IMG/VR virus record: IMGVR_UViG_2687453585_000002
From: a virus
Lineage: Duplodnaviria > Heunggongvirae > Uroviricota > Caudoviricetes
Direction: 5' to 3' (one strand)
Length of the DNA: 54,826 nucleotides
Made by a program: the position numbers and the translations under genes. This document shows, in pieces, positions 4,532-54,826 of this stretch. The notes beneath the pieces are model-generated. The model saw only the letters and a program-made list of their open reading frames with translations. It was not told the DNA's origin and did not search any database. Position 1 is the first letter of the stretch. Each line of letters starts with the position of its first letter.

Positions 4532-4589
4532 AAAAAGGGCGGCAGAGCAGTCACGGAGTAAAACTGATACCGCCAAACGTCACCAGAAA
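4532..4589 (-). ncRNA. dicF: DicF small regulatory RNA (ftsZ-targeting)
   Basis: minus-strand sequence TTTCTGGTGACGTTTGGCGGTATCAGTTTTACTCCGTGACTGCTCUGCCGCCCTTTTT matches DicF as recalled; ends in GC hairpin plus T-run; located between ydfC-like and dicB as in Qin. Confidence 0.75.
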
Positions 4590-10261: not shown

Positions 10262-10948
10262 ATGACCCCAATAAAAATATTTATGACTATTGCTGATTTC
10301 AAACGGCCTAAATTGGAGCTCCCAAACGGGGCAAACAAACTACTACTGCACTCTTGCTGTGCTCCATGTTCCGGTGAAGTGATGGAGGCGCTTCAGGCCT
10401 CGGGAATCGACTACACCATCTTTTTCTACAACCCGAACATTCATCCTCAGAAAGAGTATTTAATTCGTAAGGATGAAAATATTCGCTTTGCTGAACAACA
10501 CGGCGTGCCGTTTATCGATGCTGATTACGACACCGACAACTGGTTTGAACGTGCCAAAGGAATGGAATGGGAGCCTGAGAGGGGGATCCGTTGTACCATG
10601 TGTTTTGACATGCGTTTTGAGCGGACAGCGTTGTACGCTGCTGAAAATGGTTTCAGTGTGATCAGCAGTTCACTGGGCATTTCACGCTGGAAAAATATGC
10701 AGCAGGTTAACGAGTGTGGGCGGCGAGCTGTTGCGCATTATCCGGGTATGGTGTACTGGGATTATAACTGGCGCAAGCAGGGCGGCTCGTCCCGTATGAT
10801 TGAAATCAGCAAGCGCGAAAAATTCTATCAGCAGGAATATTGTGGCTGTGTGTATTCTCTGCGCGATACCAATCTACACCGCAAATCTCAGGGACGCCCT
10901 CTTATCAAAATTGGCCAACTCCACTACGGAAAAGAAGAGAAGGAGTGA
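10262..10948 (+). CDS. DUF208/QueH-like protein (putative epoxyqueuosine reductase)
   Basis: [11 protein letters not shown] motif near N-terminus plus CTMC and CGC cysteine motifs and ~220-aa size fit the QueH family; start 10262 or 10283. Confidence 0.55.
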
Positions 10949-11185
10949 TTTTATGGATCACCTTTCTGATTGATTTCATATTGGCGAGGTGACGTGAGTT
11001 AAGTAGAATGGCTGCGGGTGCTTGAGGCTATCTGTCTCAGGCATGAACACTGAAAGGCAGATAGAGAAAAGCCCCAGTTAACATTTCGCGTCCTGCAAGA
11101 CGCTTAACATTAATCTGAGGCCCAATCTATGTCTCACAAATGTAGGTTAGCCTCTTACGTGCCGAAAGGCAAGGGGAAGCAGGCT

Positions 11186-11341
11186 ATGAAGCAGCAAAAG
11201 GCGATGTTAATCGCCCTGATCGTCATCTGTTTAACCGTCATAGTGACGGCACTGGTAACGAGGAAAGACCTCTGCGAGGTACGACTCCGAACCGGCCAGA
11301 CGGAGGTCGCTGTCTTCACAGCTTACGAACCTGAGGAGTAA
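11186..11341 (+). CDS. hok: Hok/Gef-family type I toxin (HokD/RelF-like)
   Basis: 51-aa product MKQQKAMLIALIVICLTVIVTALVTRKDLCEVRLRTGQTEVAVFTAYEPEE matches HokD nearly exactly as recalled; single TM helix. Confidence 0.85.
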   Translation: MKQQKAMLIALIVICLTVIVTALVTRKDLCEVRLRTGQTEVAVFTAYEPEE

Positions 11342-12838: not shown

Positions 12839-13219
12839 ATGACTGAACGCATAGAATTTGTTTTGCCTTACCCGCCAACGGTGAACACTTACTGGCGTCG
12901 TCGTGGCAGCACATATTTTGTATCAAAAGCCGGGGAGCGTTATCGCCGGGCAGTGGCGCTTATTGTTCGCCAGCAGCGGCTGAAATTAAGCCTGTCCGGA
13001 AGGTTGGCAATAAAAATTATTGCAGAACCACCGGATAAGCGCCGCCGTGATCTGGACAATATTCTGAAAGCGCCGCTGGATGCGCTGACGCATGCGGGGT
13101 TGCTAATGGACGATGAGCAGTTTGATGAAATCAATATCGTTCGTGGTCAGCCAGTATCTGGTGGACGTCTGGGGGTGAAGATTTACCCCATAATGCATGA
13201 AGAGCAGGTCAAAAAATGA
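12839..13219 (+). CDS. rusA: Holliday junction resolvase RusA
   Basis: 126 aa; conserved PPxxNxYW N-terminus and DRRRRDLDN catalytic motif. Confidence 0.85.
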   Translation: MTERIEFVLPYPPTVNTYWRRRGSTYFVSKAGERYRRAVALIVRQQRLKLSLSGRLAIKIIAEPPDKRRRDLDNILKAPLDALTHAGLLMDDEQFDEINIVRGQPVSGGRLGVKIYPIMHEEQVKK

Positions 13220-14037
13220 AACTGGAAGATTTACCGAAATACTACTCCCCAAAATCCCCCGGCCTGACTGATGCATCGGCCTCAACGTCGAAAGATGCGC
13301 TGAGTATCACTGATGTGATGGCCGCGCAGGGCATGACACAGAATCGGGCTGAGATGGGGTTTTCTGCGTTCCTGGGGAAAATGGGCATCAGTATGAATGA
13401 CAGGGCGCGGGCAACAGAATTACTGGCAGATTATGCACTCAGTCGGTGCGATCGTGTGGCGGCGTTGAGAAAACTTCCGGCAGAAATAAAACCGGTAGTG
13501 ATGCGCATTATGGCTTCGTACGCTTTTGAGGATTATGCCCGCAGCGCAGCGAGTAAAAAGCAGTGCCCCTGTTGCCGAGGGGAAAAATTTATTGAAGGCG
13601 AAGTTTTTACAAACAAGGTTCAGTATCCGGATGGCAAGCCGCCAGTATGGGCAAAGTGTACGAAAGGTGTGTATCCGTCTTACTGGGAAGAATGGAAAAA
13701 AATTCGGGAGGTGGTGAAAGTTTCTTGTCCTGAATGTAAAGGGAAGGGGGAGATTTCCACTGCCTGTAAAGACTGCCGTGGGCGTGGTGTCGCCATTCAT
13801 CGTGAAGAGTCGGTAAAACGTGGTATGCCTGTTATCAGAGACTGCCAGCGTTGTGGTGGTCGTGGCTGTGAAAGACTACCATCAACGGAGGCATTTAATG
13901 CCATATGCAAAGTGACGAGTGCTATCACGCTTGATACGTGGAAAAAATCAGTGAAACGCTTTTACGATACGTTGGTGGTTCGGTTTGACATTGAAGAGGC
14001 ATGGGCGGAGCGGCAGTTAAAGAGGGTAACGCGATAG
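13216..14037 (+). CDS. late gene antiterminator Q-like protein
   Basis: 273 aa with multiple CxxC zinc motifs; last gene before a strong terminator and the late region. Confidence 0.7.
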   Translation: MKLEDLPKYYSPKSPGLTDASASTSKDALSITDVMAAQGMTQNRAEMGFSAFLGKMGISMNDRARATELLADYALSRCDRVAALRKLPAEIKPVVMRIMASYAFEDYARSAASKKQCPCCRGEKFIEGEVFTNKVQYPDGKPPVWAKCTKGVYPSYWEEWKKIREVVKVSCPECKGKGEISTACKDCRGRGVAIHREESVKRGMPVIRDCQRCGGRGCERLPSTEAFNAICKVTSAITLDTWKKSVKRFYDTLVVRFDIEEAWAERQLKRVTR

Positions 14038-14117
14038 TGTTGTTGATTTTTCCCGAATCTGTGGTAAATTTGCTCTAACGATGGGCGTTTTATGCCTGAC
14101 GTTAGAAGATTTTTTAC

Positions 14118-14143
14118 ACCCCGCCGCCTGGCGGGTTTTTTAT
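14118..14143 (+). terminator. intrinsic terminator (tR'-like) downstream of Q
   Basis: CCGCC-GCCT-GGCGG hairpin followed by GTTTTTTAT. Confidence 0.7.
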
Positions 14144-14263
14144 GACTGAAATCGCGTCAGTACAGTAAACGCGCTGGTGGCGGTGAATACCTGTCTTTCA
14201 GCTTGCTGGCTTTTTCGACAAGAGTTATTGGTGTGTCACGTTAACCGGAAAAGGGAAAAAGAC

Positions 14264-14461
14264 ATGCTGAAACAGCAGGATATGACAGAAACCGCCAGAG
14301 TGGTGTTTAATGAATTAAGCGTCACCGAACCGGCGACAGCCGGGGAGATTGCGCAGAATACTTACCTTTCACGCGAACGCTGCCAGTTAATACTGACCCA
14401 GCTGGTTATGGCGGGTCTGGCAGACTATCAGTTCGGTTGTTACAGACGCCTTCCGCAGTGA
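14264..14461 (+). CDS. hypothetical small protein
   Basis: ATG at 14264 with AAGGGA RBS; 65 aa. Confidence 0.4.
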   Translation: MLKQQDMTETARVVFNELSVTEPATAGEIAQNTYLSRERCQLILTQLVMAGLADYQFGCYRRLPQ

Positions 14462-14612
14462 AGGCTTTTTTATTTGTGGTAAATGGGCGGCTGGTGGGTG
14501 TTAGGGGCACCCACCAGCCATCTGCTCATGCGTTGGGGTCACAAGCAAACCTCAGGCCCATCTGCTTTGCGCAAAAGCGGTATGAGCCTATCAGAGAAGT
14601 GCTTATTGATCT

Positions 14613-15662
14613 ATGGCTAATACTGTAAAAATATCCAGTTGTGAGTTAATCAACGCCGACTGCCTGGAATTTATCCGGTCGTTACCCGAAAATTCTGTTG
14701 ACCTGATAGTCACGGACCCGCCGTACTTTAAAGTGAAGCCTGAGGGCTGGGATAACCAGTGGAAGGGCGACGATGATTACCTGAAGTGGCTGGACCAGTG
14801 TCTGGCGCAGTTCTGGCGGGTGCTGAAACCTGCCGGAAGTCTTTACCTGTTCTGTGGTCATCGCCTGGCATCTGATATCGAAATCATGATGCGTGAACGC
14901 TTCAGTGTGCTGAACCATATTATCTGGGCGAAGCCGTCCGGACGCTGGAACGGATGCAACAAGGAAAGCCTGCGGGCGTATTTCCCCGCCACAGAGCGCA
15001 TTCTGTTCGCGGAACATTATCAGGGGCCGTATCGTCCGAAAGATGCCGGGTATGCGGCGAAGGGCAGTGCACTGAAACAGCATGTGATGGCCCCGCTGAT
15101 TTCTTACTTTCGTGATGCGCGCGCGGCCCTGGGGATAACGGCAAAACAGATTGCAGATGCCACAGGAAAGAAAAACATGGTGTCGCACTGGTTCAGTGCC
15201 AGTCAGTGGCAGCTACCGAACGAAAGCGATTATCTGAAATTACAGTCGCTGTTTGCCCGGGTGGCAGAAGAGAAACATCAGCGCGGTGAACTGGAAAAGC
15301 CCCACCACCAGCTGGTGGATACGTATACGTCACTGAACCGGCAGTATGTGGAGCTGCAGAGTGAATATAAGCATCTGCGGCGGTATTTTGGTGTGACGGC
15401 GCAGGTGCCGTACACGGATGTGTGGACACATAAACCGGTGCAGTTCTATCCCGGGAAACATCCGTGCGAAAAACCGGCAGAAATGCTGCAGCAGATAATC
15501 AGCGCAAGCAGTCGTCCGGGTGACCTGGTTGCAGATTTTTTTATGGGCTCAGGTTCAACGGTAAAAGCGGCACTGGCGCTCGGGCGTCGTGCGATTGGCG
15601 TTGAGCTGGAGACCGGACGTTTTGAGCAGACAGTCAGGGAAGTTCAGGGTTTAATCGTTTGA
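14613..15662 (+). CDS. DNA N6-adenine (or N4-cytosine) methyltransferase, orphan
   Basis: motif IV DPPY (IVTDPPYF) near N-terminus and motif I FxGxG (DFFMGSGS) near C-terminus; no adjacent restriction gene. Confidence 0.8.
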   Translation: MANTVKISSCELINADCLEFIRSLPENSVDLIVTDPPYFKVKPEGWDNQWKGDDDYLKWLDQCLAQFWRVLKPAGSLYLFCGHRLASDIEIMMRERFSVLNHIIWAKPSGRWNGCNKESLRAYFPATERILFAEHYQGPYRPKDAGYAAKGSALKQHVMAPLISYFRDARAALGITAKQIADATGKKNMVSHWFSASQWQLPNESDYLKLQSLFARVAEEKHQRGELEKPHHQLVDTYTSLNRQYVELQSEYKHLRRYFGVTAQVPYTDVWTHKPVQFYPGKHPCEKPAEMLQQIISASSRPGDLVADFFMGSGSTVKAALALGRRAIGVELETGRFEQTVREVQGLIV

Positions 15663-15711
15663 AACGGATGAGATTGCAGAATTAATTACGCACCATTATT
15701 ATTCTGCTCCC

Positions 15712-15787
15712 GGCCCTTTAGCTCAGTGGTGAGAGCGAGCGACTCATAATCGCCAGGTCGCTGGTTCAAATCCAGCAAGGGCCACCA
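15712..15787 (+). tRNA. tRNA with CAU anticodon (Ile2/Met type)
   Basis: acceptor stem GGCCCTT/AAGGGCC, GTTCAAATCC T-loop, anticodon loop CTCATAA, 3' CCA. Confidence 0.8.
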
Positions 15788-15887
15788 TCACAAACCGCCA
15801 TTAGCTTATCAGGAAGAGCAGACGACACGATAACAGGGTTGTTGGTGCGGGGGCGGGTCCCCGATGGCGGTCCATTATCGGTATTCA

Positions 15888-15964
15888 GCGTTGTTAGCTC
15901 AGCCGGACAGAGCAATTGCCTTCTAAGCAATCGGTCACTGGTTCGAATCCAGTACAGCGCGCCA
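15888..15964 (+). tRNA. tRNA-Arg (UCU)
   Basis: acceptor stem GCGTTGT/ACAGCGC, T-loop GGTTCGAATCC, anticodon loop CTTCTAA, 3' GCCA. Confidence 0.8.
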
Positions 15965-16071
15965 TATTCATTCTTCCAGATTCCTTCCGGCAGAGCCTTA
16001 TACTGAAATATACCTGGCTCAGGATATTGTTGAAAATATTATATGTTTGTCAAAAATAAAAGTTCTGTTAA

Positions 16072-16428
16072 GTGTTGATTGAGTGTTTGTTATACGGTCT
16101 AATGGTTTTTTCAGCATTAAATATTTATCATTCATATGGTGTGGGTAGAGTGAATATTGATGAGGCGTCGGGGTGTTTCATCCTTAGGCAGCGTATTGAT
16201 ATAGTCAATGCAGCACGAGCAAAGGCCTTCAGCCGTTTGACAGTTTTGTTCTGTACTCCTGATCGTCTTTCGGGAAGAGACGTTATTATTCTGAATAGTG
16301 ATGCTATACAGAGGGTTTGCGATGAGTTCATGGTGGCTAATTCAGAATTATTTACTCTTGTTCAGGAGTACAACAGAATAGCCAGGACCTGTGGTATGGA
16401 TGAACTTCGGATTACTCATCTGGGGTAG
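16072..16428 (+). CDS. hypothetical protein (cargo locus, function unknown)
   Basis: 118-aa ORF from GTG (in-frame ATG 16102 and GTG 16150 alternatives); no recognisable motif; weak RBS. Confidence 0.3.
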   Translation: MLIECLLYGLMVFSALNIYHSYGVGRVNIDEASGCFILRQRIDIVNAARAKAFSRLTVLFCTPDRLSGRDVIILNSDAIQRVCDEFMVANSELFTLVQEYNRIARTCGMDELRITHLG

Positions 16429-16875
16429 ATACATATCTGGATTATCACCGGTTACGGTAAAAAGTGATTGCTTACTGTTTTTGTGAATGGCATTGCTGCA
16501 GCCGGATAATGTCAGTGCTGGCTGACGGTGTGCTGGTGGCGGGTGTGGTGGTTGTTGCTTTCCCGTTGCTGAAAAAGAAAACGCCAGACTGTTAGCCGGG
16601 TATCAGTTAGCGGGAGAAATTTTTAAATACTTCACAATTCAGGCGGTTGATTGTTGTCTGGTTTGCGGGGAGTTTGTTAAAAGAAACTGGCATGGTGAAT
16701 CCCCCTGTGCGGAGGGGCAATCAGCGAGTAGGTATATGGGATAATCGCGGATTCAGGTGCTGGTACTGAATTCACCGGGAGGCACCCGGCACCATGCAAT
16801 GGCACATAGCGCCACTCTCCAGCCCCTCTCCGGAGGGGCTGTTTATATTGATTTTGTCAGATGTGAGTAAACTCC

Positions 16876-17211
16876 TTATGGACTTTGTTGTTTTAGTCCA
16901 TAAGGACATATTTGCAGAGTGCAACGGTTATTAAAGCATTCATTCAATACGTTATCTGTATTTGTAGGGCATTCCTGGCTGTTTTTGATTAAATTCCAGA
17001 ATGTTTTATTGAATGGTACTACGTTGTAAATGGTTACAGGTAGCACTTTGTTATTGAGCATGATGCCTGTGTGAGTCAGTGTAAATATACTTTCAGGAGG
17101 TAAGAAAGCATCCGATTGATACCAGATTATTAATTTTATTTTACTCCATATGACTGAAAAAGATATTCCGCATGATGGCTGGATAACTGTATCAATCACA
17201 ATCCACTTCAT
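16876..17211 (-). CDS. hypothetical cysteine-containing protein (AT-rich cargo)
   Basis: 111-aa ORF with AAGGAA RBS 7 nt upstream of ATG; 4 Cys in C-terminal third; visibly AT-rich relative to flanks. Confidence 0.45.
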
Positions 17212-17471
17212 TTAGTTTCCTTGTTTATGCCTTGCTGGTGATGTTCTGAAAAGTATAAATGATATTTTTGATTGTAAACCATAGAGCAGAATTATTTTTC
17301 TGATGTTGTTTATTGTTTATTTAAATGCAGGGTGGTTTATATCTCGTCTTGTAGTTTATCCATGCATATCTGCTTGATGATGAGGTTTTTATTTAAGGTA
17401 TGGTTTTGTGTTTTTTCTGTATTACATGTCAGGTATTTTAAAGAATCATTTTTCAGATGGTGGAAAGAACC

Positions 17472-19325
17472 ATGGCATTTAAACACTATGATGTTGTCAG
17501 GGCGGCGTCGCCGTCAGATCTTGCGGAAAAGCTGACACATAAACTGAAAGAGGGCTGGCAGCCGTTTGGTAGTCCGGTGGCCATAACCCCTTATACCCTG
17601 ATGCAGGCGATTGCAGCAGAAGGTGATGTGGTCGTCAGTGGTGCAACTGAGCCGGAGTGGTACTACGTCATCGTACTGGCCGGGCAATCCAATGCCATGG
17701 CTTACGGTGAAGGGCTTCCGCTTCCGGATTCATACGATGCGCCCCATCCGCGCATTAAGCAACTGGCCCGTCGTAACACAGTGACTCCCGGTGGTGAAGT
17801 ATGCGTATTTAACGACATCATTCCTGCTGACCATTGTCTGCATGATGTTCAGGATATGAGTACGATTAACCATCCCCGGGCTGACCTGAGCAAAGGGCAG
17901 TACGGCTGTGTCGGACAGGGCTTACATATTGCCAAAAAACTGCTTCCGTATATCCCTAATAATGCGGGGATCCTGCTGGTACCATGCTGTCGTGGTGGTT
18001 CGGCATTCACCCAGGGCACGGAGGGGACATTCAGCGAGTCCACGGGGGCCAGTCAGGATTCGGCTCGCTGGGGAGTGGGTAAGCCGTTATATCAGGATCT
18101 GCTTTTCCGCACGAAGGCAGCATTGCAGAAAAACCCGAAAAACGTTTTGCTGGCGATATGCTGGATGCAGGGGGAATTCGATATGACGAATGCCAGTTAC
18201 GCCCAGCAGCCAGCAGCATTTCTTGCAATGGTACAGCAGTTCCGTGCTGACCTTGCCGGGCTGGCGGCGCAGTGTCACGGTGGAAGTCCGGCATCAGTCC
18301 CCTGGATTTGTGGCGACACGACATACGCGTGGAAACAAGAACACGGTACGCAATATGAAGTGGTATATGGTGCATATAAAGGTAAAGAATCCCAGCAGAT
18401 TTATTTTGTTCCCTTTATGACCGATGGTAGCGGAGTTAATACACCGACAAACAACCCGTCAGAAGATCCTGATATTGCCGGGTCTGGTTATTACGGTTCG
18501 GCATCCCGAACGAACAAAAACTGGGTATCATCAAATCGCCCGACGCATTTCAGCTCATGGGCGCGTCGTGGCATTATTCCCGATCGTATGGCAACTGCTA
18601 TTCTGAACGTAGCCGGTCGCACCTTAGCCTTCATTAGTGGTAAGGCACCGGAAATCAAACCCTCGCCCGGCGGCGACACGCCATCGGGGCCGTCTGAAGA
18701 TGCATCCGTACGCACAATCTCCCTGTTGCCGACAGCCGGAGATGCTGCTGCGCAGGGCTGGAGCATTAAGAATGGCGGAATTCAGTTGTCAGATGGTGTA
18801 TTTAAGATCACCAAGCAGAGCAATAAAGCCTGGTCCCTGACGCGCCCGGTGGATGACGCAGTCTCCCTGCTGACACGGGGTGGCAGACTGAGCTGTAAGT
18901 TTCGACTGTCAGGCGCACTGACCAACAATCAGTTCGGTCTGGGAATTTATCTGTATACCGATGTAGCGTTACCTGACGTCGTGGCGATGACCGGGACTGG
19001 TAACCCGTTCCTGATGTCGTTCTTCACCCAGACCACAGACGGCAAACTGAATCTGATGCATCACAAGAAAGCAGGAAACACAAAGTTGGGCGAGTTCGGG
19101 AATTACAGTAACGACTGGCAGACGCTGGAGCTGGTGTTCACCGCCGGCAGTGCCACGGTTACTCCGAAACTGAATGGAGTGGCTGGCCCGGCATTCCAGG
19201 TCATAAAAGACAGTCTGACACTGGGGCTGAATGCGCTGACGCTGACGGATATTACCAAAAATGCAACGTATGGCGTTGAGATAGAAAGTCTGGTGCTGGA
19301 GATAAATGCACCGGCATCATCATAA
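17472..19325 (+). CDS. NanS-p-like sialate O-acetylesterase family protein
   Basis: GQSN motif (VIVLAGQSNAMAYGEG) typical of SASA-type esterases; ~620 aa; sits between Q/tRNAs and lysis genes as in Stx phages; start at ATG 17472 preferred over 17457. Confidence 0.7.
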   Translation: MAFKHYDVVRAASPSDLAEKLTHKLKEGWQPFGSPVAITPYTLMQAIAAEGDVVVSGATEPEWYYVIVLAGQSNAMAYGEGLPLPDSYDAPHPRIKQLARRNTVTPGGEVCVFNDIIPADHCLHDVQDMSTINHPRADLSKGQYGCVGQGLHIAKKLLPYIPNNAGILLVPCCRGGSAFTQGTEGTFSESTGASQDSARWGVGKPLYQDLLFRTKAALQKNPKNVLLAICWMQGEFDMTNASYAQQPAAFLAMVQQFRADLAGLAAQCHGGSPASVPWICGDTTYAWKQEHGTQYEVVYGAYKGKESQQIYFVPFMTDGSGVNTPTNNPSEDPDIAGSGYYGSASRTNKNWVSSNRPTHFSSWARRGIIPDRMATAILNVAGRTLAFISGKAPEIKPSPGGDTPSGPSEDASVRTISLLPTAGDAAAQGWSIKNGGIQLSDGVFKITKQSNKAWSLTRPVDDAVSLLTRGGRLSCKFRLSGALTNNQFGLGIYLYTDVALPDVVAMTGTGNPFLMSFFTQTTDGKLNLMHHKKAGNTKLGEFGNYSNDWQTLELVFTAGSATVTPKLNGVAGPAFQVIKDSLTLGLNALTLTDITKNATYGVEIESLVLEINAPASS

Positions 19326-19475: not shown

Positions 19476-19691
19476 ATGTACCAGATGGAAAAAATCACAA
19501 CAGGTGTGTCATACACCACGTCAGCGGTGGGAACGGGCTACTGGTTCCTGCAGTTGCTGGACAGGGTTTCCCCGTCTCAGTGGGCGGCAATAGGCGTGCT
19601 GGGGAGTCTGCTGTTTGGGCTGCTGACATATCTGACTAACCTGTATTTCAAAATCAGAGAGGACCGTCGTAAGGCGGCACGGGGAGAGTAA
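19476..19691 (+). CDS. pinholin, phage 21 S-like (class II holin)
   Basis: 71 aa, dual-start MYQM, two TM segments, C-terminus [22 protein letters not shown] matching S21 as recalled. Confidence 0.85.
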
Positions 19692-19695
19692 TTCA

Positions 19696-20040
19696 ATGAC
19701 TCAAAACTATGAACTGATTGTGAAAGGGATCCGCAATTTTGAGAATAAAGTTACGGTAACTTTAGCGTTACGGGACAAAAAACGCTTTGACGGTGAAATT
19801 TTTGACCTGGACATCTCGCTGGACCGTGTTGAAGGTGCCGCGCTGGAGTTTTATGAGGCAGCAGCCAGAAGGAGCATCAGACAGGTCTTCCTGGATGTTG
19901 CTGCCGGGTTATGTGAAGGGGATGAGCAGTCGCCGGAAAAGCGCCCCGTAATTTTAGAGGCGCAGGATGTGTTGATAACCTACAGAGGAAAACTACCGGG
20001 AATAATTACGGGTTCTCTGAAGAGTCCGCCGAAATGGTAA
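19696..20040 (+). CDS. hypothetical protein (lysis-cassette insert)
   Basis: 114-aa ORF 4 nt after holin stop with GGAG RBS; no recognisable motif. Confidence 0.4.
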   Translation: MTQNYELIVKGIRNFENKVTVTLALRDKKRFDGEIFDLDISLDRVEGAALEFYEAAARRSIRQVFLDVAAGLCEGDEQSPEKRPVILEAQDVLITYRGKLPGIITGSLKSPPKW

Positions 20041-20278
20041 TTTTACCAGCATATTTTTCATCCAGTAATACAGCAAGCCGCCTGAAAGAGTCTTGTTGTT
20101 CCTGAGACCATTTGGGATTGCATGATTCAAACTGGATTGATGCCAGCGTTGATTGCATCTGTTCCCTTGGAATTGAGAATGCCAGATATGAGAAGGCGAC
20201 GGTAAGGGTATTCACGTCTTCCCGAAGCCTGGAAATGCTGTCGAGCAACTCCTGTAGAGAAATGGTGTTATTGTCCAT
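20006..20278 (-). CDS. hypothetical protein (lysis-cassette insert)
   Basis: 90-aa ORF, GAGGA RBS; convergent with and overlapping previous ORF by 35 nt; abuts IS left end. Confidence 0.4.
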   Translation of the reverse strand: MDNNTISLQELLDSISRLREDVNTLTVAFSYLAFSIPREQMQSTLASIQFESCNPKWSQEQQDSFRRLAVLLDEKYAGKITISADSSENP

Positions 20279-20343
20279 AAATAATCCTCATGATTGTATT
20301 GACCTGTTGAAGTGGTTTACTGAATTTGGCCACCTGAACAGAG

Positions 20344-21527
<1,184 letters not shown>

Positions 21528-21636
21528 CTCGGTGGCCAGTTTTTGTTGACCACTTCATGTTAGCAGCCTGAGGCAACAGGCTGGAACTGATAAACATATC
21601 CAGGGCTCAGAAACCGATAAATCCTGATAAATATCC

Positions 21637-22170
21637 ATGAACGCAAAAATCAGATACGGCCTGTCGGCTGCCGTTCTGGCGCTGATTGCCGCTGGTGCGC
21701 CTGCGCCTGACATTCTCGACCAGTTTCTGGATGAAAAGGAAGGTAACCACACCACGGCATACCGTGATGGCGCGGGTATCTGGACCATCTGCCGCGGTGC
21801 CATCCTGGTGGATGGCAAACCTGTCGTTCCGGGCATGAAGTTGTCGAAGGAAAAATGCGACCGGGTTAACGCCATTGAGCGTGATAAGGCGCTGGCATGG
21901 GTGGAGAAAAACATCAAAGTGCCATTGACCGAACCCCAGAAAGCGGGGATCGCGTCATTCTGTCCGTACAACATTGGTCCCGGTAAGTGTTTCCCGTCGA
22001 CGTTTTACAGACGAATTAATGCAGGTGATCGCAGGGGAGCATGCGAAGCGATTCGCTGGTGGATTAAGGACGGTGGCAGAGACTGCCGTATTCGCTCAAA
22101 TAACTGTTACGGTCAGGTATTCCGTCGTGACCAGGAGAGCGCGCTGGCGTGCTGGGGAATCGACAGATAA
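21637..22170 (+). CDS. SAR endolysin (lysozyme, GH24-like)
   Basis: 177 aa; N-terminal weakly hydrophobic signal-anchor-release segment LSAAVLALIAAGA; lysozyme-like core; pairs with pinholin. Confidence 0.8.
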   Translation: MNAKIRYGLSAAVLALIAAGAPAPDILDQFLDEKEGNHTTAYRDGAGIWTICRGAILVDGKPVVPGMKLSKEKCDRVNAIERDKALAWVEKNIKVPLTEPQKAGIASFCPYNIGPGKCFPSTFYRRINAGDRRGACEAIRWWIKDGGRDCRIRSNNCYGQVFRRDQESALACWGIDR

Positions 22171-37600: not shown

Positions 37601-37869
37601 GGGCCGGGCTGATGGGGGAAGCCGGACCTGAAGCCATTATGCCCCTGACCCGGGCGGCGGATGGCTCGCTGGGCGTACGCGCGGTGGGCAGTATGAACGG
37701 CAGTGCCGGTCTGGTGTATTCCCCGGTCTACCACATCGCCATTCAGAATGACGGGGCTAACGGACAGATAGGGGCGGAGGCGGCAGGCAGTCTTGTGCAG
37801 CTGATTGACCAGCGGGTGCAGGCGGTGATGCTGTCCATGCGACGTGACGGAGGAATGCTGAGTGGCTGA
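34627..37869 (+). CDS. tail tape measure protein
   Basis: 1080 aa, long alpha-helical/coiled-coil protein between chaperone and minor tail genes. Confidence 0.85.
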   Translation: MATLRELIIKISANSQSFQSEIQRASRMGSEYYRTLQNGGRQAAAVARVQRRALAELNSQLTEIRASAAGTAGAFAGAFATGHLISLADEWSSVNARLKQASQSSDEFSSSQKVLMDISQRTGTAFSDNAALFARSAASMREYGYSADDVLKVTEAISTGLKISGASTAEAGSVITQFSQALAQGVLRGEEFNSVNESGDRIVRALAAGMGVARKDLKAMADDGKLTADKVVPALISQLGVLRDEYAAMPETVSDGITKVENAFMAWVGGANEASGATKTLSGVLNGVAGNIDNVATAAGALVAVGVARYFGNMASGAVSATAGLVTAARNEVALAEAQLRGTQIATARARAAVYRAQQAVAAARGTEMQIAAEARLAATQERLNRNIAARTAAQNELNSTTAVGSRLMTGALGLVGGVPGLVMLGAAAWYTLYQNQEQARESARQYALTIDEIAHKTPSMSLPEASDNEGRTRAALAEQNRLIDEQASRVKSLQEKIAGYQYVLANPGWTTGDGFMINHLTSVKTVTEGLSQATEQLAVEQSRLAQMQEKAQSIQDVLAGLEDRRVALIRQQAAEQNKVYQSMLVMNGQHTEFNRLLGLGNELLQQRQGLVNVPLRLPQATLDDKQQSALTKTERELALSRLKGEEKERARLGYAADDLGFVGDSYQEARQRYISNALEAWRNNEANKPKSRGGKSETEKAEDSFSRLLKQQKEQLALAGQNTELAKLKYQTAQGELKTLTEMQKQELLRNAALIDQQKIREQLRSREETLKNDNVAARASNEAELLGYGQGERARERMRELQQIRDSFRQKDADLQSQYQTGDISEDFYRQARAQNAQYLSERLKDQAAFYAESDAQRADWQKGLQEGLSNWVDNASDYASQAAQLATEGISGMVNNITEMLNGNKVEWRNWASSVLQEISKVLMNAAIVNGIKTAANGMSGAGGFIGSIGDWLGGAVANAKGGVYTSANLSAYSNSIVDTPTYFAFAKGAGLMGEAGPEAIMPLTRAADGSLGVRAVGSMNGSAGLVYSPVYHIAIQNDGANGQIGAEAAGSLVQLIDQRVQAVMLSMRRDGGMLSG

Positions 37870-44689: not shown

Positions 44690-46231
44690 ATGCCAACAGT
44701 TCCAATTTCTATGAGAAAACTTAAAGAAATTCTTAGGCTTAAATACGGTGTTGGACTCAGCCATCGACAAATTGGTCGTAGTCTTGCAATCTCCCCTTCC
44801 GTTGTATCCAGATATGCTAATCGGGCGGCTCAACTTGGCATAAAGCAGTGGCCCTTACCTACAGGATGGGATGATACAAAACTAAAACATGCGTTCCTTC
44901 AGACCCAGGTTAAGATGAAGAAGCACTCTCTGCCTGACTGGGCTACAGTACACCGGGAACTGCGTAATAAATGCGTGACGCTGCAGCTACTCTGGGAAGA
45001 ATACTGTGAGCGTAATCCAGGCGGTTTTTACAGCTATAACCATTACTGCCGGATGTACCGTGAATGGCTCAAAACCACTTCACCATCAATGCGTCAGGTA
45101 CATAAAGCTGGCGAAAAACTTTTCGTTGATTACTGTGGACCTACCGTTGGCGTTACCGACCCTGAGACCGGAGAAATAAGAACTGCTCAGGTCATCGTAG
45201 CTGTTCTCGGGGCATCAAGTTACACATGGGCAGAGGCCACCTGGTCTCAGCAGCTTGAAGACTGGGTGATGAGTCATGTTCGCTGCTTCCAGTGGTTGGG
45301 TGGCGTTCCTGAACTTGTTGTTCCGGACAATCTGAAAAGCGCCACATCCAGGGCATGTAAGTATGATCCTGACGTTAACCCTACCTACCAGCAGATGCTT
45401 GAGCATTATAATGTCGCAGTTTTGCCTGCGCGGCCACGTAAACCGAAAGATAAAGCCAAAGCTGAAGTTGGCGTTCAGGTTGTTGAACGCTGGATCATGG
45501 CCCGAATCAGGCATGAGATCTTCTACAGCCTTGCATCGCTTAATCAGCGCATTCGGGAGTTGCTGGAAAGACTGAATAACAAAATAATGCAGAAGTTGGG
45601 TTATTCACGTGCAGAACTCTTCATCCAGCTTGATAAACCCGCACTGAAGCCTCTTCCTGAAGCCAGTTACAGTTACACCCTGGTGAAGAAAGTCAGAGTT
45701 CATGCCGATTACCACGTGGAAATCGACAAACATTACTACTCGGTTCCATGTTCGCTGTTAGGCCAGCAACTGGAAGCATGGATCTCCGGAGAACTGGTAA
45801 GACTCTTCAATCAGGGGCAGGAGGTTGCTGTGCACCCGCGCAAGCGTACTTATGGCTACAGTACCCGCAACGAGCACATGCCTGAAGCTCATCGACAGCA
45901 TGCCACCTGGACGCCAGAGCGTCTTCTGGAATGGGCGGGGCACATAGGCAGTGAAACTCATAGTTATGTGCTTCATATACTGAACTCTCGTCCACATCCG
46001 GAACAAAGCTATCGCTTCTGCCTTGGACTCCTGAACCTTCATAAAAAATACAGTAAAGCCAGACTTAATGCAGCATGTGCAAGAGCTCTGAAAACAAAGG
46101 TATGGCGTCTGTCAGGTATTAAATCGATCCTGGAAAAAGGTCTGGATAAACAACCTGTTCAGGATCCAAAACCAGATCTGTTATCCACGATGGAACACGA
46201 AAACGTACGCGGCAGTGAGTATTACCACTGA
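44690..46231 (+). CDS. istA: IS21-family transposase IstA
   Basis: 513 aa; N-terminal HTH; DDE core. Confidence 0.8.
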   Translation: MPTVPISMRKLKEILRLKYGVGLSHRQIGRSLAISPSVVSRYANRAAQLGIKQWPLPTGWDDTKLKHAFLQTQVKMKKHSLPDWATVHRELRNKCVTLQLLWEEYCERNPGGFYSYNHYCRMYREWLKTTSPSMRQVHKAGEKLFVDYCGPTVGVTDPETGEIRTAQVIVAVLGASSYTWAEATWSQQLEDWVMSHVRCFQWLGGVPELVVPDNLKSATSRACKYDPDVNPTYQQMLEHYNVAVLPARPRKPKDKAKAEVGVQVVERWIMARIRHEIFYSLASLNQRIRELLERLNNKIMQKLGYSRAELFIQLDKPALKPLPEASYSYTLVKKVRVHADYHVEIDKHYYSVPCSLLGQQLEAWISGELVRLFNQGQEVAVHPRKRTYGYSTRNEHMPEAHRQHATWTPERLLEWAGHIGSETHSYVLHILNSRPHPEQSYRFCLGLLNLHKKYSKARLNAACARALKTKVWRLSGIKSILEKGLDKQPVQDPKPDLLSTMEHENVRGSEYYH

Positions 46232-46242
46232 TACGGGATCCA

Positions 46243-46992
46243 ATGATGAATCATCTTTACGAACAACTGACCGCACTTAAACTCACCGGCTTCCGTGATG
46301 CGCTTAAAAAGCAACTTGCTCAACCGGGCACATACCAGGAGCTGGGCTTCGAAGAACGCCTGTCATTACTGACAGCAGAAGAACTAACCTGCCGTGAAAA
46401 CAGGAAGGCAGAGCGTCTGATCAAACATGCACGGTTCAGACTTAATGCTGAGTTATCAAAGCTGGATTATCGTAACAATAGAGGGCTGGACAGGGCCCTC
46501 ATCCGTTCACTCAGTCAGGGAAACTGGTTAACCCTGAAACAAAATATTTTACTGACCGGGGCCACCGGCAGCGGTAAAACGTTCCTGGCATGTGCACTTG
46601 GTCATAATGCCTGCCGACAGGGATACAAGGTCTACTATTATCGCCTTAAAGCGCTGATGGAACAGTGCTATCAGGGGCATGCTGATGGAAGATACAGCAA
46701 ACTTTTGACCAGGCTGAATAATAGCGATCTGCTGCTTCTGGATGACTGGGGGCTGGAACCTCTCTCATCAGAACAGCGTAGCGACCTGCTGGAAATAGTG
46801 GATCTGATGTACCAACGAGGCTCAATCATCGTAGTGAGCCAGTTGCCGGTGGAAAACTGGTACAAAATGATCGGAGACTCCACACATGCGGATGCCATCC
46901 TAGATCGACTGGTTCATGGCAGTATCAAGATCGAACTTAAAGGAGAATCAATGCGGAAAATACAATCTCCGTTGACCGAAGGAGATCAGTGA
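46243..46992 (+). CDS. istB: IS21-family helper ATPase IstB
   Basis: Walker A GATGSGKTFLA and Walker B LLLLDDWG. Confidence 0.85.
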   Translation: MMNHLYEQLTALKLTGFRDALKKQLAQPGTYQELGFEERLSLLTAEELTCRENRKAERLIKHARFRLNAELSKLDYRNNRGLDRALIRSLSQGNWLTLKQNILLTGATGSGKTFLACALGHNACRQGYKVYYYRLKALMEQCYQGHADGRYSKLLTRLNNSDLLLLDDWGLEPLSSEQRSDLLEIVDLMYQRGSIIVVSQLPVENWYKMIGDSTHADAILDRLVHGSIKIELKGESMRKIQSPLTEGDQ

Positions 46993-50375: not shown

Positions 50376-50903
50376 ATGCAACATCTGAAAAATATTACCG
50401 CCGGAAACCCCAAAACCATTGAGCAGTATCAGCTTACGAAAAAAGCTGGCGTTATCTGGCTATATACAGAAGACGGTAAAAACTGGTATGACGAATTAAA
50501 AAACTTTCAGGATGATACTTTAAAAATAGCTTATGACCAGAAGGGGATTATTCGTTGTATTGAGAAAGACGTATCAACACTTAACCCTGACGGGTTAAGT
50601 GTTGTTGAGTTACCGAATATAACAGCCAACCGTCGCGCCGATATCTCGGGAAACTGGAAGTTTCTGGATGGTAAAGTAGTAAAGCGGGAATATACAAAAC
50701 AGGAACTGCAACAGCAGGCAGAGTTACAAAAAGCCGCTTTGCTTTCCGAAGCGGAGTCTGTGATTCAACCGCTGGAACGTGCTGTCAGACTGAATATGGC
50801 AACTGATGAGGAACGCACACGACTGGAATCATGGGAACGCTACAGCGTTATGGTCAGCCGTGTGGATACTGCAAAGCCTGAATGGCCACAGAAACCAGAA
50901 TAA
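50376..50903 (+). CDS. tfa: tail fibre assembly protein
   Basis: 175 aa; follows stf. Confidence 0.8.
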
Positions 50904-50933
50904 CAACAAATTAAGGCCCGTACGGGCCTTTTC

Positions 50934-51467
50934 TTATTCTGGTGGTTCCGGGAATGTTACAGGAAGAACCGAGGTATCAGTTGTCTCAACCTGTTGCACG
51001 TATCGCATCCAGTTCATCAGTTGCTGTCTGTCTGAATCAGTGATAATCCCCAAAGTAAGCTGTGTTTGCCAGAACTGCGTTTTTTCTCTGGCCTGCTGTA
51101 ATAATATTTTTTTCTGGTTTTCCGTCTGTAGGCGCAACTCTTCTTCGGTATATACACGTTTAATGACTGCGCCATCTTTAAACATCCATTTACCTGAGTC
51201 GTCAGCACGCCGGTTGGCGGTAATATCAGGAATCTCAACGACGCTATAACCTTCAGGGTTAAGTGTGGAGGCATCTTTGGTTATGGCAACAATAATATTA
51301 TTTTCATCGTAAACAATCTTTATGGTGTCTGGCTGAAAGTTTTTCACTTCCTCATACCAGTTTTTTCCGTCCTCAGAGTAAAGCCAGATAACTCCGTGTT
51401 TCTTTGTTAACTCATACTGTTCCAGTGTTTTAGCATTACCCGCTTTTATGTTCTTTAAGTGCATCAT
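50934..51467 (-). CDS. tfa: tail fibre assembly protein (alternative, inverted orientation)
   Basis: 177 aa paralogous to the plus-strand tfa ([30 protein letters not shown]...). Confidence 0.8.
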
Positions 51468-51468
51468 A

Positions 51469-52416
51469 TTAAACGCTCGCTACATTATACCAGGTGCCAT
51501 TTATATACTTTTGAACGGGTCTGTAATAAACGCCCGCTATATTATCGGCAGAGTTAGACCCTGTATCCTGAACATTAATACCAGACAATACATGACCTGA
51601 AGGGCACTGGAAATTCCATGTTTGCCAGTTGTTCACTCCATAATATTGCTGTGAACCAAGTCGAACATCTTTCACATAACGGGAATCAAAGTTACCGTAA
51701 TCCGAGGGGTTAACACGCCCTGTAATATTTATGGTTTTATTACTTTGAATGCTTCCGGAGACAAAGCGCATAACATGGACGTTATTAGCATAAACATCCA
51801 GATTACCATCGCCATTTTGTTTAAAGCCCGTGTCATTATCACCCAATACAATCGAATTACCGCCAAGAGCACTGGATGTTCCGATACCCAGTGCACCATT
51901 CAGTTGACCACCAGATAACGGCAGTGCACCAACATCTCCTGCTGAAGGCTTTCTGGTGGTGGTGTAAAATTCGGACCAGTCGGCTTCAAAACCATAACCA
52001 TCACGGGCTGAACGATAAAAAATACCGCCATTTTTATAATTAATCCGAAACTGAGCTGCAGGACAACTTCCTTCTCCCATATAAAAATGAATAATTAACG
52101 TTGATGCACCACTAATAGTTGCGTTATAGGCTCCGCTACTCCAGTTCCATCCAACTGCTTTATCATTCGCAACGGTGCTTCCTGTTTTCCCTAAGGCAAA
52201 CGCACCAACATGACTTGCTTTTAATGTGATATCGGAGGAACCATCAAAAGCCACATTGCTTATTTTCCTGGCAGTTTTTAATTTTGCAGCTGTAGAAGCA
52301 TTGCCGGATAGTTCACCAGAAAGGCCACCGCTGAATGTTTGTCGATTAGTCCAGGTATTCGCTGTACTGAGTAACGGTATTTTCTCCCCGCTTGTGCCGA
52401 GTTCTCGTAAACCGAG
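51469..52416 (-). CDS. alternative tail-fibre C-terminal segment (promoterless, fused to stf on inversion)
   Basis: frame open from the crossover site (stop TAA lies inside site at 52420-52422); shares ALGGNSIxLGDNDTG block with current stf C-terminus. Confidence 0.65.
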
Positions 52417-52862: not shown

Positions 52863-53531
52863 CTATTTTTTCCCTGAAGCGGAAAACATTACTACAGTAC
52901 CTTGAACCTTGGTTTTAACATTCTCGAAATGCTCTGAGAGTATATGTGTTAAGCCTTCTTCGGAATCTTTTGTGTTTGAAAAGATGCCTTTCTGATTGTA
53001 AATGCGCATCAGTTTTTGACCGAAGCTATTGTGCACAACTCCATCGCCAAGAATTGTGGCTCCGTATAGAGTTCCATCGTCAGTTAAGGCCTGCGCCGCA
53101 TTGCGTATTACACAGCTTTTTGTAGATATATTTCCAGGCAGGCAGTGAAGAAGGTAAAACATGGAAATGGAATCAAATTGACCATGTAACGCCGCGGGAT
53201 AAGGTTCAAAAACATCATGGCTAATTTTATGTTTAATTTTTGATTCCCCAGCCCTTGTAGATGCCGCGTTCAGGCTAGCTTCGTTCAAATCCATTAAAGA
53301 TATCAGACTACTCTCAGGTACGTGAGTAAGGTAAAACCCAGTTCCAACACCAATATCCAGATGGTTGTTACCTACATGTTCCAGAAAGTGTGGAAGAAGG
53401 TGTTCCTTTGTAGGACATCCCCATGCAAGCCGATTTGATACTCCCAAAACCCACCAGTCATAAAGCTTTAGGGTAAGTGGTGTGTAAATTTTAGCCCCAT
53501 CATCTGTGTTTTTTTTCATTGATTTCACCAT
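52863..53531 (-). CDS. class I SAM-dependent methyltransferase
   Basis: 222 aa; motif I LDIGVGTGFY; AT-rich relative to neighbours; flanked by ~130-bp direct repeats. Confidence 0.6.
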   Translation of the reverse strand: MVKSMKKNTDDGAKIYTPLTLKLYDWWVLGVSNRLAWGCPTKEHLLPHFLEHVGNNHLDIGVGTGFYLTHVPESSLISLMDLNEASLNAASTRAGESKIKHKISHDVFEPYPAALHGQFDSISMFYLLHCLPGNISTKSCVIRNAAQALTDDGTLYGATILGDGVVHNSFGQKLMRIYNQKGIFSNTKDSEEGLTHILSEHFENVKTKVQGTVVMFSASGKK

Positions 53532-54268: not shown

Positions 54269-54826
54269 TTAAAACCGCATCAACCTTTCCACCAATTGTT
54301 CTTTACGGGCAACGATCCACCCATGTTGCTCCAGATAAAATTTAAACCGTTCCAGCGTGCATACCATCGCATCGGCGGGGACTTTTTCTGTGAACTCGAC
54401 CTGACCGTGTTTATCGAAGTGGATCAGTAATGCGCATCCATTATTTGGGGCGGGGGAGTTTTGTGCTGCAGGAGGACGTTTGTGGAGTTCTTCTTCCATT
54501 GCGTTAAATTTTTCAATGTAAGCTTCTTTTAGTCTGGCTGCTTTTTTGCCAGTAAATCCCATTACGAGGAACATGAAGCCGTCTTTTGTGATCAGGTAGC
54601 ATCGTGATTCACGTTCTGCGCCGTTGCCAATTTCGACAGTCTGAACATCGGCCGAAAAGTTGGCTGATGTAAATTCGGGAGAGCAGTCGAGTGTGTCAAT
54701 CTTAGCTAAAACGTGTTTATGTTGTTTATCGAAGTAGTCGGCAACAGCTTGAGAGGTGGTAACCAGGCGACCATCTTTGAAAAAGACTTTTGGTGACTCG
54801 TTAGAAAAAGTTATAGCTGTATTCAT
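54269..54826 (-). CDS. Rha-family phage regulatory protein
   Basis: 185 aa; N-terminal VTTSQAVADYFDKQHKHVLAKIDTL resembles Rha N-terminal domain; start ATG is the last 3 nt of the window. Confidence 0.6.
   Translation of the reverse strand: MNTAITFSNESPKVFFKDGRLVTTSQAVADYFDKQHKHVLAKIDTLDCSPEFTSANFSADVQTVEIGNGAERESRCYLITKDGFMFLVMGFTGKKAARLKEAYIEKFNAMEEELHKRPPAAQNSPAPNNGCALLIHFDKHGQVEFTEKVPADAMVCTLERFKFYLEQHGWIVARKEQLVERLMRF

Follow-up and report, generated by a model that had tools for sequence, protein, structure and literature searches.

The subject of this report is the region between positions 13216 and 19325 of IMG/VR virus record IMGVR_UViG_2687453585_000002, a stretch of 54,826 nucleotides (nt) of Caudoviricetes DNA that is called the window at its full length. 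The region carries the late-control genes of a lambdoid prophage. An initial annotation had described it as a Shiga toxin (Stx) phage architecture without stx, built from the late antiterminator Q, a terminator, an orphan DNA methyltransferase, a tRNA(CAU), a tRNA-Arg(UCU), and a NanS-p-type esterase. Each of these parts was found at or inside 13216-19325, and the absence of stx was confirmed: a tblastn search of the whole 54.8 kb with Stx1A/B and Stx2A/B gave a best E value of 0.64 and revealed no stxA-stxB operon. When the stx2 region was compared with the window by blastn, only the flank at the small RNA (sRNA) gene STnc100 was matched. Beyond the parts of that description, the region holds a 65-aa winged-helix ORF, a decayed argN tRNA, an ORF and a TciB-like peptide in the position of stx, STnc100, and iraL. 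The features of the region and of the operon end that follows it are collected in Table 1.

Table 1. Features of the late region, given in positions of the window (ORF, open reading frame; aa, amino acids)
Feature	Position	Strand	Basis
Late antiterminator Q	13216-14037	+	PF03589, E 6e-51
PR'-type late promoter and sigma-dependent pause element	14043-14085	+	Alignment to lambda PR'
tR' intrinsic terminator	14120-14141	+	Terminator scan; CCCGCCGCCTGGCGGG then T6; GC hairpin and U-run
65-aa winged-helix (TrmB-like) ORF (ORF65)	14264-14461	+	phrog_331, E 4e-42; RefSeq coding sequence
Second terminator-like hairpin	14448-14471	+	Terminator scan and fold
Orphan beta-class adenine (N6/N4-type) DNA methyltransferase	14613-15662	+	PF01555, E 2e-44
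Putative pT-like tRNA promoter, TTGCAG-17-TATTAT	15674-15702	+	Aligns with the 933W annotation 'pT; putative tRNA promoter'
tRNA-Ile2 (CAU, ileZ type)	15712-15787	+	ARAGORN, Rfam
Decayed argN tRNA, 81 nt	15794-15874	+	Alignment to intact argN of Stx2_EH1910 and 933W
tRNA-Arg (UCU, argO type), decodes AGA	15888-15964	+	ARAGORN, Rfam
Cargo slot (position of stx in Stx phages)	15975-16632	+	Alignments with ExPEC XM, CFT073, mEp460, and Stx2_EH1910
Slot ORF, 92-aa core	core 16150-16428; possible starts 16102 or 16150	+	phrog_2873, E 1e-69
43-aa TciB-like membrane peptide	16464-16595	+	DUF3927, E 1e-26; phrog_1470 TciB-like
STnc100 sRNA	16661-16850	+	Rfam RF02076, 132.4 bits against a gathering threshold of 47, full-length model match 1-206
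iraL, IraM-family RssB anti-adaptor	16876-17211	-	NCBIfam NF007393, 162 bits against a cutoff of 121
NanS-p sialate O-acetylesterase	17457-19325; likely start 17472 (RefSeq), 617 aa	+	Pfam PF08410, PF03629, PF20350
Downstream end of the same late operon	19476-22170	+	Pfam PF04971, PF07041; RefSeq JJ1887 annotation
Phage-21-type holin	19476-19691	+	
ydfR	19696-20040	+	
ISEc52 insertion	20309-21557		Boundaries by alignment to JJ1887
Endolysin gene	21637-22170	+	

Late-control elements, methylase, and tRNA cluster

Q belongs to the Q-lambda family and is of the QuuQ/YdfT type, with a CxxC zinc-ribbon insertion of about 70 aa (residues ~114-182). Its homology to Q-lambda, which places it in a lambda-type antitermination module, was evident from a match to PDB entry 7ubm (also 4mo1) at E 2e-38, in which both halves of the protein (residues 1-113 and 183-273) align. 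The late promoter that follows has a -35 element of TTGATT and an extended -10 element, TGgTAAATT, at 14062-14070, and AACGATGGG at 14077-14085 is predicted to hold the start and the pause element. The -10 hexamer (TAAATT) and AACGATGGG are identical to those of lambda PR', with an extended TG in the window, while the -35/-10 spacer, which is the Q-binding region, differs from that of lambda PR'. At the sequence level, a PR' promoter with a sigma70-dependent proximal pause is thus followed by an intrinsic terminator, tR', and the predicted leader RNA is about 60-65 nt long (fold -21.9 kcal/mol, z -2.45).

The PR' region is kept in all QuuQ-type loci and is swapped in the PPyecE element, which has another Q, and tR' is kept even where the Q/PR' module differs. 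The Q/PR' unit assorts independently of everything after tR'; PPyecE combines a different Q and promoter with the same terminator, ORF65, and methylase.

The methylase is 349 aa long and shows DPPY at residues 35-38 and FxGxG (FMGSG) at residues 310-314, as read directly from the translation. PADLOC assigned it to MTase_II (E 2e-166) with no partner nuclease, and it is called an orphan because no restriction gene lies near it in the annotated neighborhood. It is 94% identical over 349 aa to M.EcoGII of E. coli O104:H4 C227-11, a figure obtained against a reference that was taken from the machine-read supplement of PMC11551740 and contains visible reading errors. The two proteins have the same length and the same beta-class motif order (DPPY, target-recognition domain, FxGxG), and this order together with the close identity assigns the methylase to the M.EcoGI/GII family. 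About 20 substitutions separate them, concentrated in the presumed target-recognition region (residues ~148-275). M.EcoGII methylates adenine in any sequence context, is prophage-borne, is harmful when expressed, and is reported to be silent in the lysogen (PMC5778455). By analogy, the methylase of the window may likewise be a non-specific N6-methyladenine enzyme, and a similar silence in the lysogen would be expected because its gene sits directly behind tR'.

ORF65 has a weak match to TrmB (E 0.0015), and proteins of this type are named TrmB family regulators in sources. It always travels with an M.EcoGII-type methylase, as seen in ExPEC XM, PPyecE, Stx2_EH1910, and the slot variant L005, and is missing wherever the methylase is missing. 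Because of this constant co-occurrence, ORF65 could be a controller of methylase expression.

The putative promoter upstream of the tRNA genes is one that we infer from its sequence to drive them. The CAU tRNA is annotated as tRNA-Ile in RefSeq and is 100% identical to ileZ of 933W; tRNAs of the ileZ type read AUA after lysidine modification. The argO gene is 97-100% identical to argO of 933W, Stx2_EH1910, and mEp460. Both of these genes are intact and argN is decayed, so that the cluster is not an ileZ-argN-argO cluster with three intact tRNA genes. The argN remnant has kept the acceptor stem, the D arm, and the T stem, and its anticodon arm and T loop have been replaced; it was detected neither by ARAGORN nor by the Rfam tRNA model (E<=1). 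The decayed allele is 73-75% identical to argN of Stx phages and 100% identical in mEp460 (mEp460_ev081) and vB_EcoS-640R1 (640R1), and because these are viable or induced phages, it is a fixed variant and not strain-specific decay. A reading of the remnant as a cryptic tRNA or another known RNA was rejected, as there was no Rfam hit at E<=1 and the fold is cloverleaf-like but with a 3-nt 'anticodon' loop (z -1.7); it was treated as a pseudogene.

The two intact tRNAs read codons that are rare in E. coli, where averages per 1000 codons are roughly 4-5 for ATA and 2-3 for AGA. Across the prophage, the values are 8.1 for ATA and 5.3 for AGA. The highest use was found in the low-GC cargo, with 25 per 1000 for both codons in the slot ORF and 54 for ATA in iraL.

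The cargo slot and its flanking genes

The slot is precisely defined, because its edges are marked both by the breakpoints of the alignment to the Stx2a phage Stx2_EH1910 and by an empty site in the ExPEC XM prophage. Homology to Stx2_EH1910 spans the methylase and the tRNAs, ends about 10 nt past argO, and restarts at TCACAATTCAG (16633), which is the sequence directly after stx2B. In ExPEC XM, TCACAATTCAGG and STnc100 come immediately after argO and its terminator. Elsewhere on the same backbone, the slot is occupied by stx2AB (Stx2_EH1910 and 933W), by stx1AB (Stx1_14040), by a RelE/ParE pair with TciA/TerB (PPyecE), by TolA-like, AraC-like, and IS3 genes (L005), or by cspF/cspB (the Qin prophage of K-12). 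CFT073 and the non-Stx phage mEp460 carry the same cargo as the window. The boundaries of the modules coincide with tR', the tRNAs, and STnc100.

The cargo of the window measures 655 bp, is 98.6-99% identical in mEp460, and was found at a coverage of at least 80% in 1183 of 5426 complete E. coli genomes; in the phage database, it was found in no Stx-phage record. The slot ORF is a real gene under purifying selection, since it aligns without gaps over 92 codons to a homolog with 68% nucleotide identity and gives a ratio of nonsynonymous to synonymous substitution rates (dN/dS) of 0.285. This homolog also lies just upstream of a DUF1737/nanS-p gene, in L005. A GTG at 16072 is not conserved among the aligned copies, so that the two starts given in Table 1 are more likely. 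Although the gene is present in about 22% of complete E. coli genomes, it is unannotated in the RefSeq records of JJ1887 and CFT073. Its product was predicted by AlphaFold to be a two-helix hairpin (pLDDT 85). Searches of Pfam, NCBIfam, and PADLOC gave no match, a homolog search returned only hypothetical proteins of E. coli and Shigella, and the Foldseek hits in PDB and BFVD were nothing but generic helical hairpins with E values above 0.2. It is rather unlikely that the 92-aa hairpin protein and the TciB-like peptide are an induction-coupled payload, co-transcribed from PR' in the manner of Stx and affecting host fitness, phage exclusion, or host interaction in extraintestinal E. coli.

The STnc100 sequence scores well above the threshold of its Rfam model and ends in a strong terminator of its own (16820-16841; fold -20.3 kcal/mol, z -4.7). 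In Stx2 phages, STnc100 sits 75 nt downstream of stx2 (PMC12370729), and alignment showed that the copy in the window occupies the same place as the copy downstream of stx2B in Stx2_EH1910. STnc100 is related to the prophage PasD sRNAs (bioRxiv 10.64898/2026.05.13.724894).

The reverse-strand gene next to STnc100 is a moron of low GC content (34.5%), and its own promoter region spans 17212-17456. Over 606 nt, the gene and its upstream sequence are 98.8% identical to CFT073 and the promoter region is conserved, which identifies it as iraL by the definition taken from PMC4045071 (at least 95% identity and a conserved promoter region). The same protein, WP_000871291.1, is annotated in RefSeq in both CFT073 and JJ1887, the latter of which is 100% identical to the window over 6.1 kb. 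The name IraM was rejected for this gene, since K-12 IraM is only about two-thirds identical over 77 solved residues and IraL of CFT073 is an exact match. CFT073 has iraL and not iraM, and its IraL binds RssB, stabilizes RpoS in log phase, and is expressed from its own promoter (PMC4045071). The iraL locus of the 'potB island' of CFT073 proved to be the same scaffold as that of the window.

The esterase has the three-domain layout of NanS-p proteins, with an N-terminal DUF1737 domain, a SASA esterase domain (GQSN at residues 76-79), and a lectin-like C-terminal domain (DUF6645). It matches PDB entry 3pt5 at E 5e-122 and the C-terminal domain of 'NanS-p' in entry 6yp6 at E 9e-31. Esterase activity on Neu5,9Ac2 is known for other NanS-p alleles (PMC8065619), and nanS-p genes have been described from prophages of Stx and non-Stx type alike (PMC10462455, PMC8065619). 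The NanS-p-family esterase gp84 of phage phi24B decorates the capsid through its DUF1737 domain (bioRxiv 10.64898/2026.04.10.717836).

Relationship to Shiga toxin phages

The initial annotation was right about the shared architecture. In Stx2_EH1910 (LC567834), the order is ydfU-rusA-quuQ-PR'/tR'-ORF65-methylase-ileZ-argN-argO-stx2A-stx2B-STnc100-like-iraM-nanS-p-holin-endolysin, which is the order of the window with stx2AB in the slot, and the alignment breakpoints flank exactly the stx2 promoter and operon. The description of the region as an alternative-cargo variant of this architecture is borne out by the same breakpoints, and the likeness to Stx phages is not due to chance. Most segments are 75-100% identical between the two, with 89-100% for Q, PR'-tR', ORF65, the methylase, and the two tRNAs, and 69-77% for iraM, STnc100, and the SASA part; ydfU, the C-terminal part of nanS, and ydfR of Stx2_EH1910 have no match to the window. 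Phage 933W, which also differs by having stx2AB in the slot, shares the tRNAs, the position of nanS-p, the holin, and R. Both 933W and the Stx1a phage Stx1_14040 have an unrelated Q, with no blastn match to that of the window, and no methylase.

A specific tie to Stx phages did not hold up. Per-segment blastn showed that non-Stx elements (ExPEC XM, 640R1, mEp460, and the potB prophage of CFT073) are the closest relatives for almost every part. Nucleotide identity of Q is 94% to ExPEC XM, 92% to mEp460 and 640R1, and 89% to Stx2_EH1910. For the best non-Stx relatives versus Stx phages, the identities are 100% versus 95% for PR'-tR', 97% versus 96% for the methylase, 97-100% versus 69-72% for STnc100, and 100% versus 97% for the holin, and iraL is 99% identical in 640R1 versus 77% in Stx phages. 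Only the distal two-thirds of nanS-p have their best match in a Stx phage (96.3%, Stx2 phage 86), and this in a phage database that is dominated by Stx records, with about 218 of the 373 matching records named as Stx-converting.

The non-Stx relatives each share a different part of the region. The potB-island prophage of CFT073 has the order hokD-ydfU-rusA-QuuQ-ileZ-argN-argO-slot cargo (ORF and DUF3927)-STnc100-iraL-DUF1737-holin-ydfR-lysozyme, but differs in that IS200C replaces the ORF65-methylase block, argN is intact, a truncated DUF1737 stub stands in place of a full NanS-p, and the integration site is another one. Both mEp460, a non-Stx temperate phage, and 640R1, an induced phage, have a QuuQ-type Q, the same PR'/tR', and identical ileZ and decayed argN alleles, and both are without the ORF65-methylase block. 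In mEp460, TolA-like genes take the place of iraL and nanS-p, and 640R1, whose holin is 100% identical to that of the window, has only a DUF1737 stub. Prophage Qin of K-12 shares the backbone ydfD-dicB-dicF-ydfCBA-dicA/C ... hokD-rem-ydfU-ydfT(quuQ)-slot-essQ-ydfR-rrrQ-rzpQ, although it is a degraded remnant of low nucleotide identity to the window, with cspF/cspB and small ORFs in the slot and without the methylase, tRNAs, STnc100, iraL, and nanS-p that are all present in the window.

These comparisons bear on whether the prophage derives from a Stx phage whose toxin cassette was deleted or gave way to the present cargo. Such a loss is compatible with the common gene order, with a difference from Stx2_EH1910 that amounts to exactly the cassette, and with the retention of STnc100 and an iraM-family gene in both. 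However, no stx remnant is present in the window, for almost all flanking segments the nearest relatives are non-Stx elements and not Stx phages, and the argN allele is of the mEp460/640R1 type and not the intact type of Stx phages. The cargo is also found at the same junction in the non-Stx mEp460, in CFT073, and in each of the genomes counted above, and an empty site exists in ExPEC XM. We consider descent from a Stx phage to be highly improbable.

Genome counts agree with the per-segment identities. The block from tR' through ORF65 and the methylase to the tRNAs was found at a coverage of at least 80% in 1789 of the 5426 complete genomes, whereas stx2 was found in 602 and stx1 in 349 of the same set. 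These are totals across the set and are not cross-tabulated per genome, but even with the block in every stx-positive genome, it would still occur without stx in at least about 840. Among the matches listed, block copies at 96-100% identity carry no label as E. coli that produce Shiga toxin (STEC), and the STEC-type serotypes O91:H21 and O111:H8 appear at 91-94%. By both measures, the scaffold resembles other lambdoid phages at least as much as it does Stx phages, which had been named beforehand as the outcome that would tell against a Stx-specific scaffold.

The opposite direction, in which an empty or differently filled scaffold of this kind gained stx and gave rise to long-tailed Stx phages, has some points in its favor. 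Versions with an empty slot or an alternative cargo are far more common than stx versions, the structural module of the prophage is 92-96% identical to those of long-tailed Stx1a/Stx2a phages and of the non-Stx PPompW, and a Stx2a phage with the same QuuQ-methylase-tRNA scaffold exists. These points hold for the family only, as the prophage of the window is no closer to Stx phages than its other non-Stx relatives are, and mosaic recombination obscures any single-lineage ancestry. A progenitor state for this particular prophage is quite unlikely. In summary, the proposal of a specific progenitor or derivative of a Stx phage is not supported by the per-segment identities or by any trace of stx, and what stands of the earlier interpretation is the shared architecture with an alternative cargo.

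We therefore favor, at a probability of roughly 0.85, the reading that a full-length temperate prophage of the Qin/lambda type has here an ordinary region of late-control genes and morons. On this reading, lambdoid late regions form a large family whose members recombine freely, and Stx phages and the copy in the window represent two of its cargo variants. A gene string that seems diagnostic of Stx phages is then the generic, modular late region of Qin/lambda-type prophages. About a third of complete E. coli genomes, mostly non-toxigenic ones, have this late region, and its presence therefore says nothing about toxin history. The region is already known and widespread, and each of its parts has either been characterized before or recurs without change in hundreds of genome sequences. 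What is mildly new is limited to one overlooked small gene, conserved but omitted by genome annotation, in the slot that corresponds to that of the toxin.

Predicted regulation and prophage context

In the lysogen, the lambda-type PR' would fire and its transcripts would end at tR' after about 60 nt. Because of this stop, the toxic non-specific adenine methylase, NanS-p, and the lysis and virion genes would be silent. The units with their own promoters, namely the tRNA pair, STnc100, and the reverse-strand iraL, would stay on and act on the host. The tRNA pair would decode the rare AUA and AGA codons that are enriched in the neighboring low-GC cargo, and IraL would block RssB and stabilize RpoS in growing cells, as in the experiments in CFT073. 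Upon induction, Q is predicted to load onto RNA polymerase paused at AACGATGGG, and the modified polymerase would pass tR', the second hairpin, the tRNAs, the slot genes, and the STnc100 terminator to reach nanS-p and the lysis and morphogenesis genes. The methylase would be made late and could methylate adenines of the progeny DNA as an anti-restriction coat. Whatever follows argO would be co-amplified, which is the toxin in Stx phages and here would be the hairpin protein and the TciB-like peptide. IraL, M.EcoGII-type methylases, STnc100, and NanS-p have been studied separately, and here they would lie together in one Q-controlled transcription unit of the pandemic ST131 lineage; IraL is relevant through RpoS stabilization in uropathogens.

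Several points weigh against this picture. The reading errors in the M.EcoGII reference have been mentioned above. A generic promoter scan gave 6 sites versus 7.6 in shuffled sequence and did not call PR', and since it performed no better than on shuffled sequence, the promoter calls rest on the alignments to lambda PR' and to pT of 933W. Q-dependent readthrough, the activity of the tRNA promoter, and late methylation are what we infer from homologs only. Finally, ISEc52 in the late operon, together with ISEc12 in lom, may have blocked the lytic program by polarity and left the scaffold partly non-functional.

ISEc52 is an IS911-like insertion sequence of the IS3 family; it separates ydfR from the endolysin gene, shows a 4-bp overlap at the junction, and is absent in JJ1887. 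A designation as IS911 itself was dropped, as the RefSeq name is ISEc52. The same insertion was found in 77 complete genomes, and among the matches listed, those that name a lineage are ST131. The fixation of this insertion is one reason to think that the prophage could be a decaying, non-inducible remnant in which only the independently transcribed cargo (iraL, STnc100, and the tRNAs) matters to the host. ISEc12 in lom, the decay of one of the three tRNAs, and ISEcp1-blaCTX-M-15 in the tape-measure gene of sister copies point the same way. On the other hand, none of the scaffold ORFs is disrupted and their sequences are shared at 100% identity by hundreds of genomes, the prophage has its integrase, excisionase, repressor, and replication genes, vB_EcoS-783R2, whose structural module is identical, has been recovered as a phage, and the decayed argN allele also occurs in viable phages. 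Overall, a non-inducible remnant is conceivable but doubtful, and the reading as a late region of a full-length temperate prophage is retained.

Many complete E. coli genomes carry the 6.1-kb region at 100% identity, and the named examples among them belong to O25b:H4-ST131, such as JJ1887. It matches 468 records at 99% or more, and 520 of the 5426 complete genomes contain at least 80% of it. The JJ1887 copy of the prophage directly adjoins ompW. A literature search yielded nothing usable on the ompW prophage of ST131 or on ileZ/argN/argO.

The prophage is, by sequence comparison, a mosaic at the scale of the whole element. Its early and regulatory genes include those for integrase, excisionase, and exonuclease, dicB/dicF/ydfABC, a LexA-type repressor, replication genes, hokD/sok, ydfU, rusA, and Q, and this early region is closest to the non-Stx phages 640R1, mEp460, and PPompW. 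The structural part is a complete HK97/lambda-like head and long-tail module, which is 100% identical to that of vB_EcoS-783R2, 95.6% to that of PPompW, and 92-94% to those of long-tailed Stx1a/Stx2a phages. The early region was typed as Qin because of the presence of DicF and hokD/sok: the DicF sRNA lies at 4537-4588 (- strand) close to dicB and ydfABC, and the hokD toxin locus has its sok antisense RNA at 11016-11191 (+ strand).

Other observations were made outside the late region. The nin-equivalent region holds a gene for a QueH-like epoxyqueuosine reductase (10262-10948), which is unusual tRNA-modification cargo for a prophage. ISEc12 (IS21 family, istA/istB) at 44690-46992 interrupts the lom-like outer-membrane protein gene, and it does likewise in JJ1887. 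The tape-measure gene is split by ISEcp1-blaCTX-M-15 in JJ1887 (L010 14321-20809), whereas the window has an intact 1080-aa tape-measure ORF at 34627-37869. Tail-fiber assembly genes are present in both orientations at about 50376-52254, where JJ1887 has a recombinase pseudogene, and this arrangement suggests a former invertible host-range segment. Beyond the tail fibers lies a gene for a class I SAM-dependent methyltransferase (52863-53531, - strand), and a Rha-family regulator gene at the edge of the window (54269-54826, - strand) may belong to a neighboring element.

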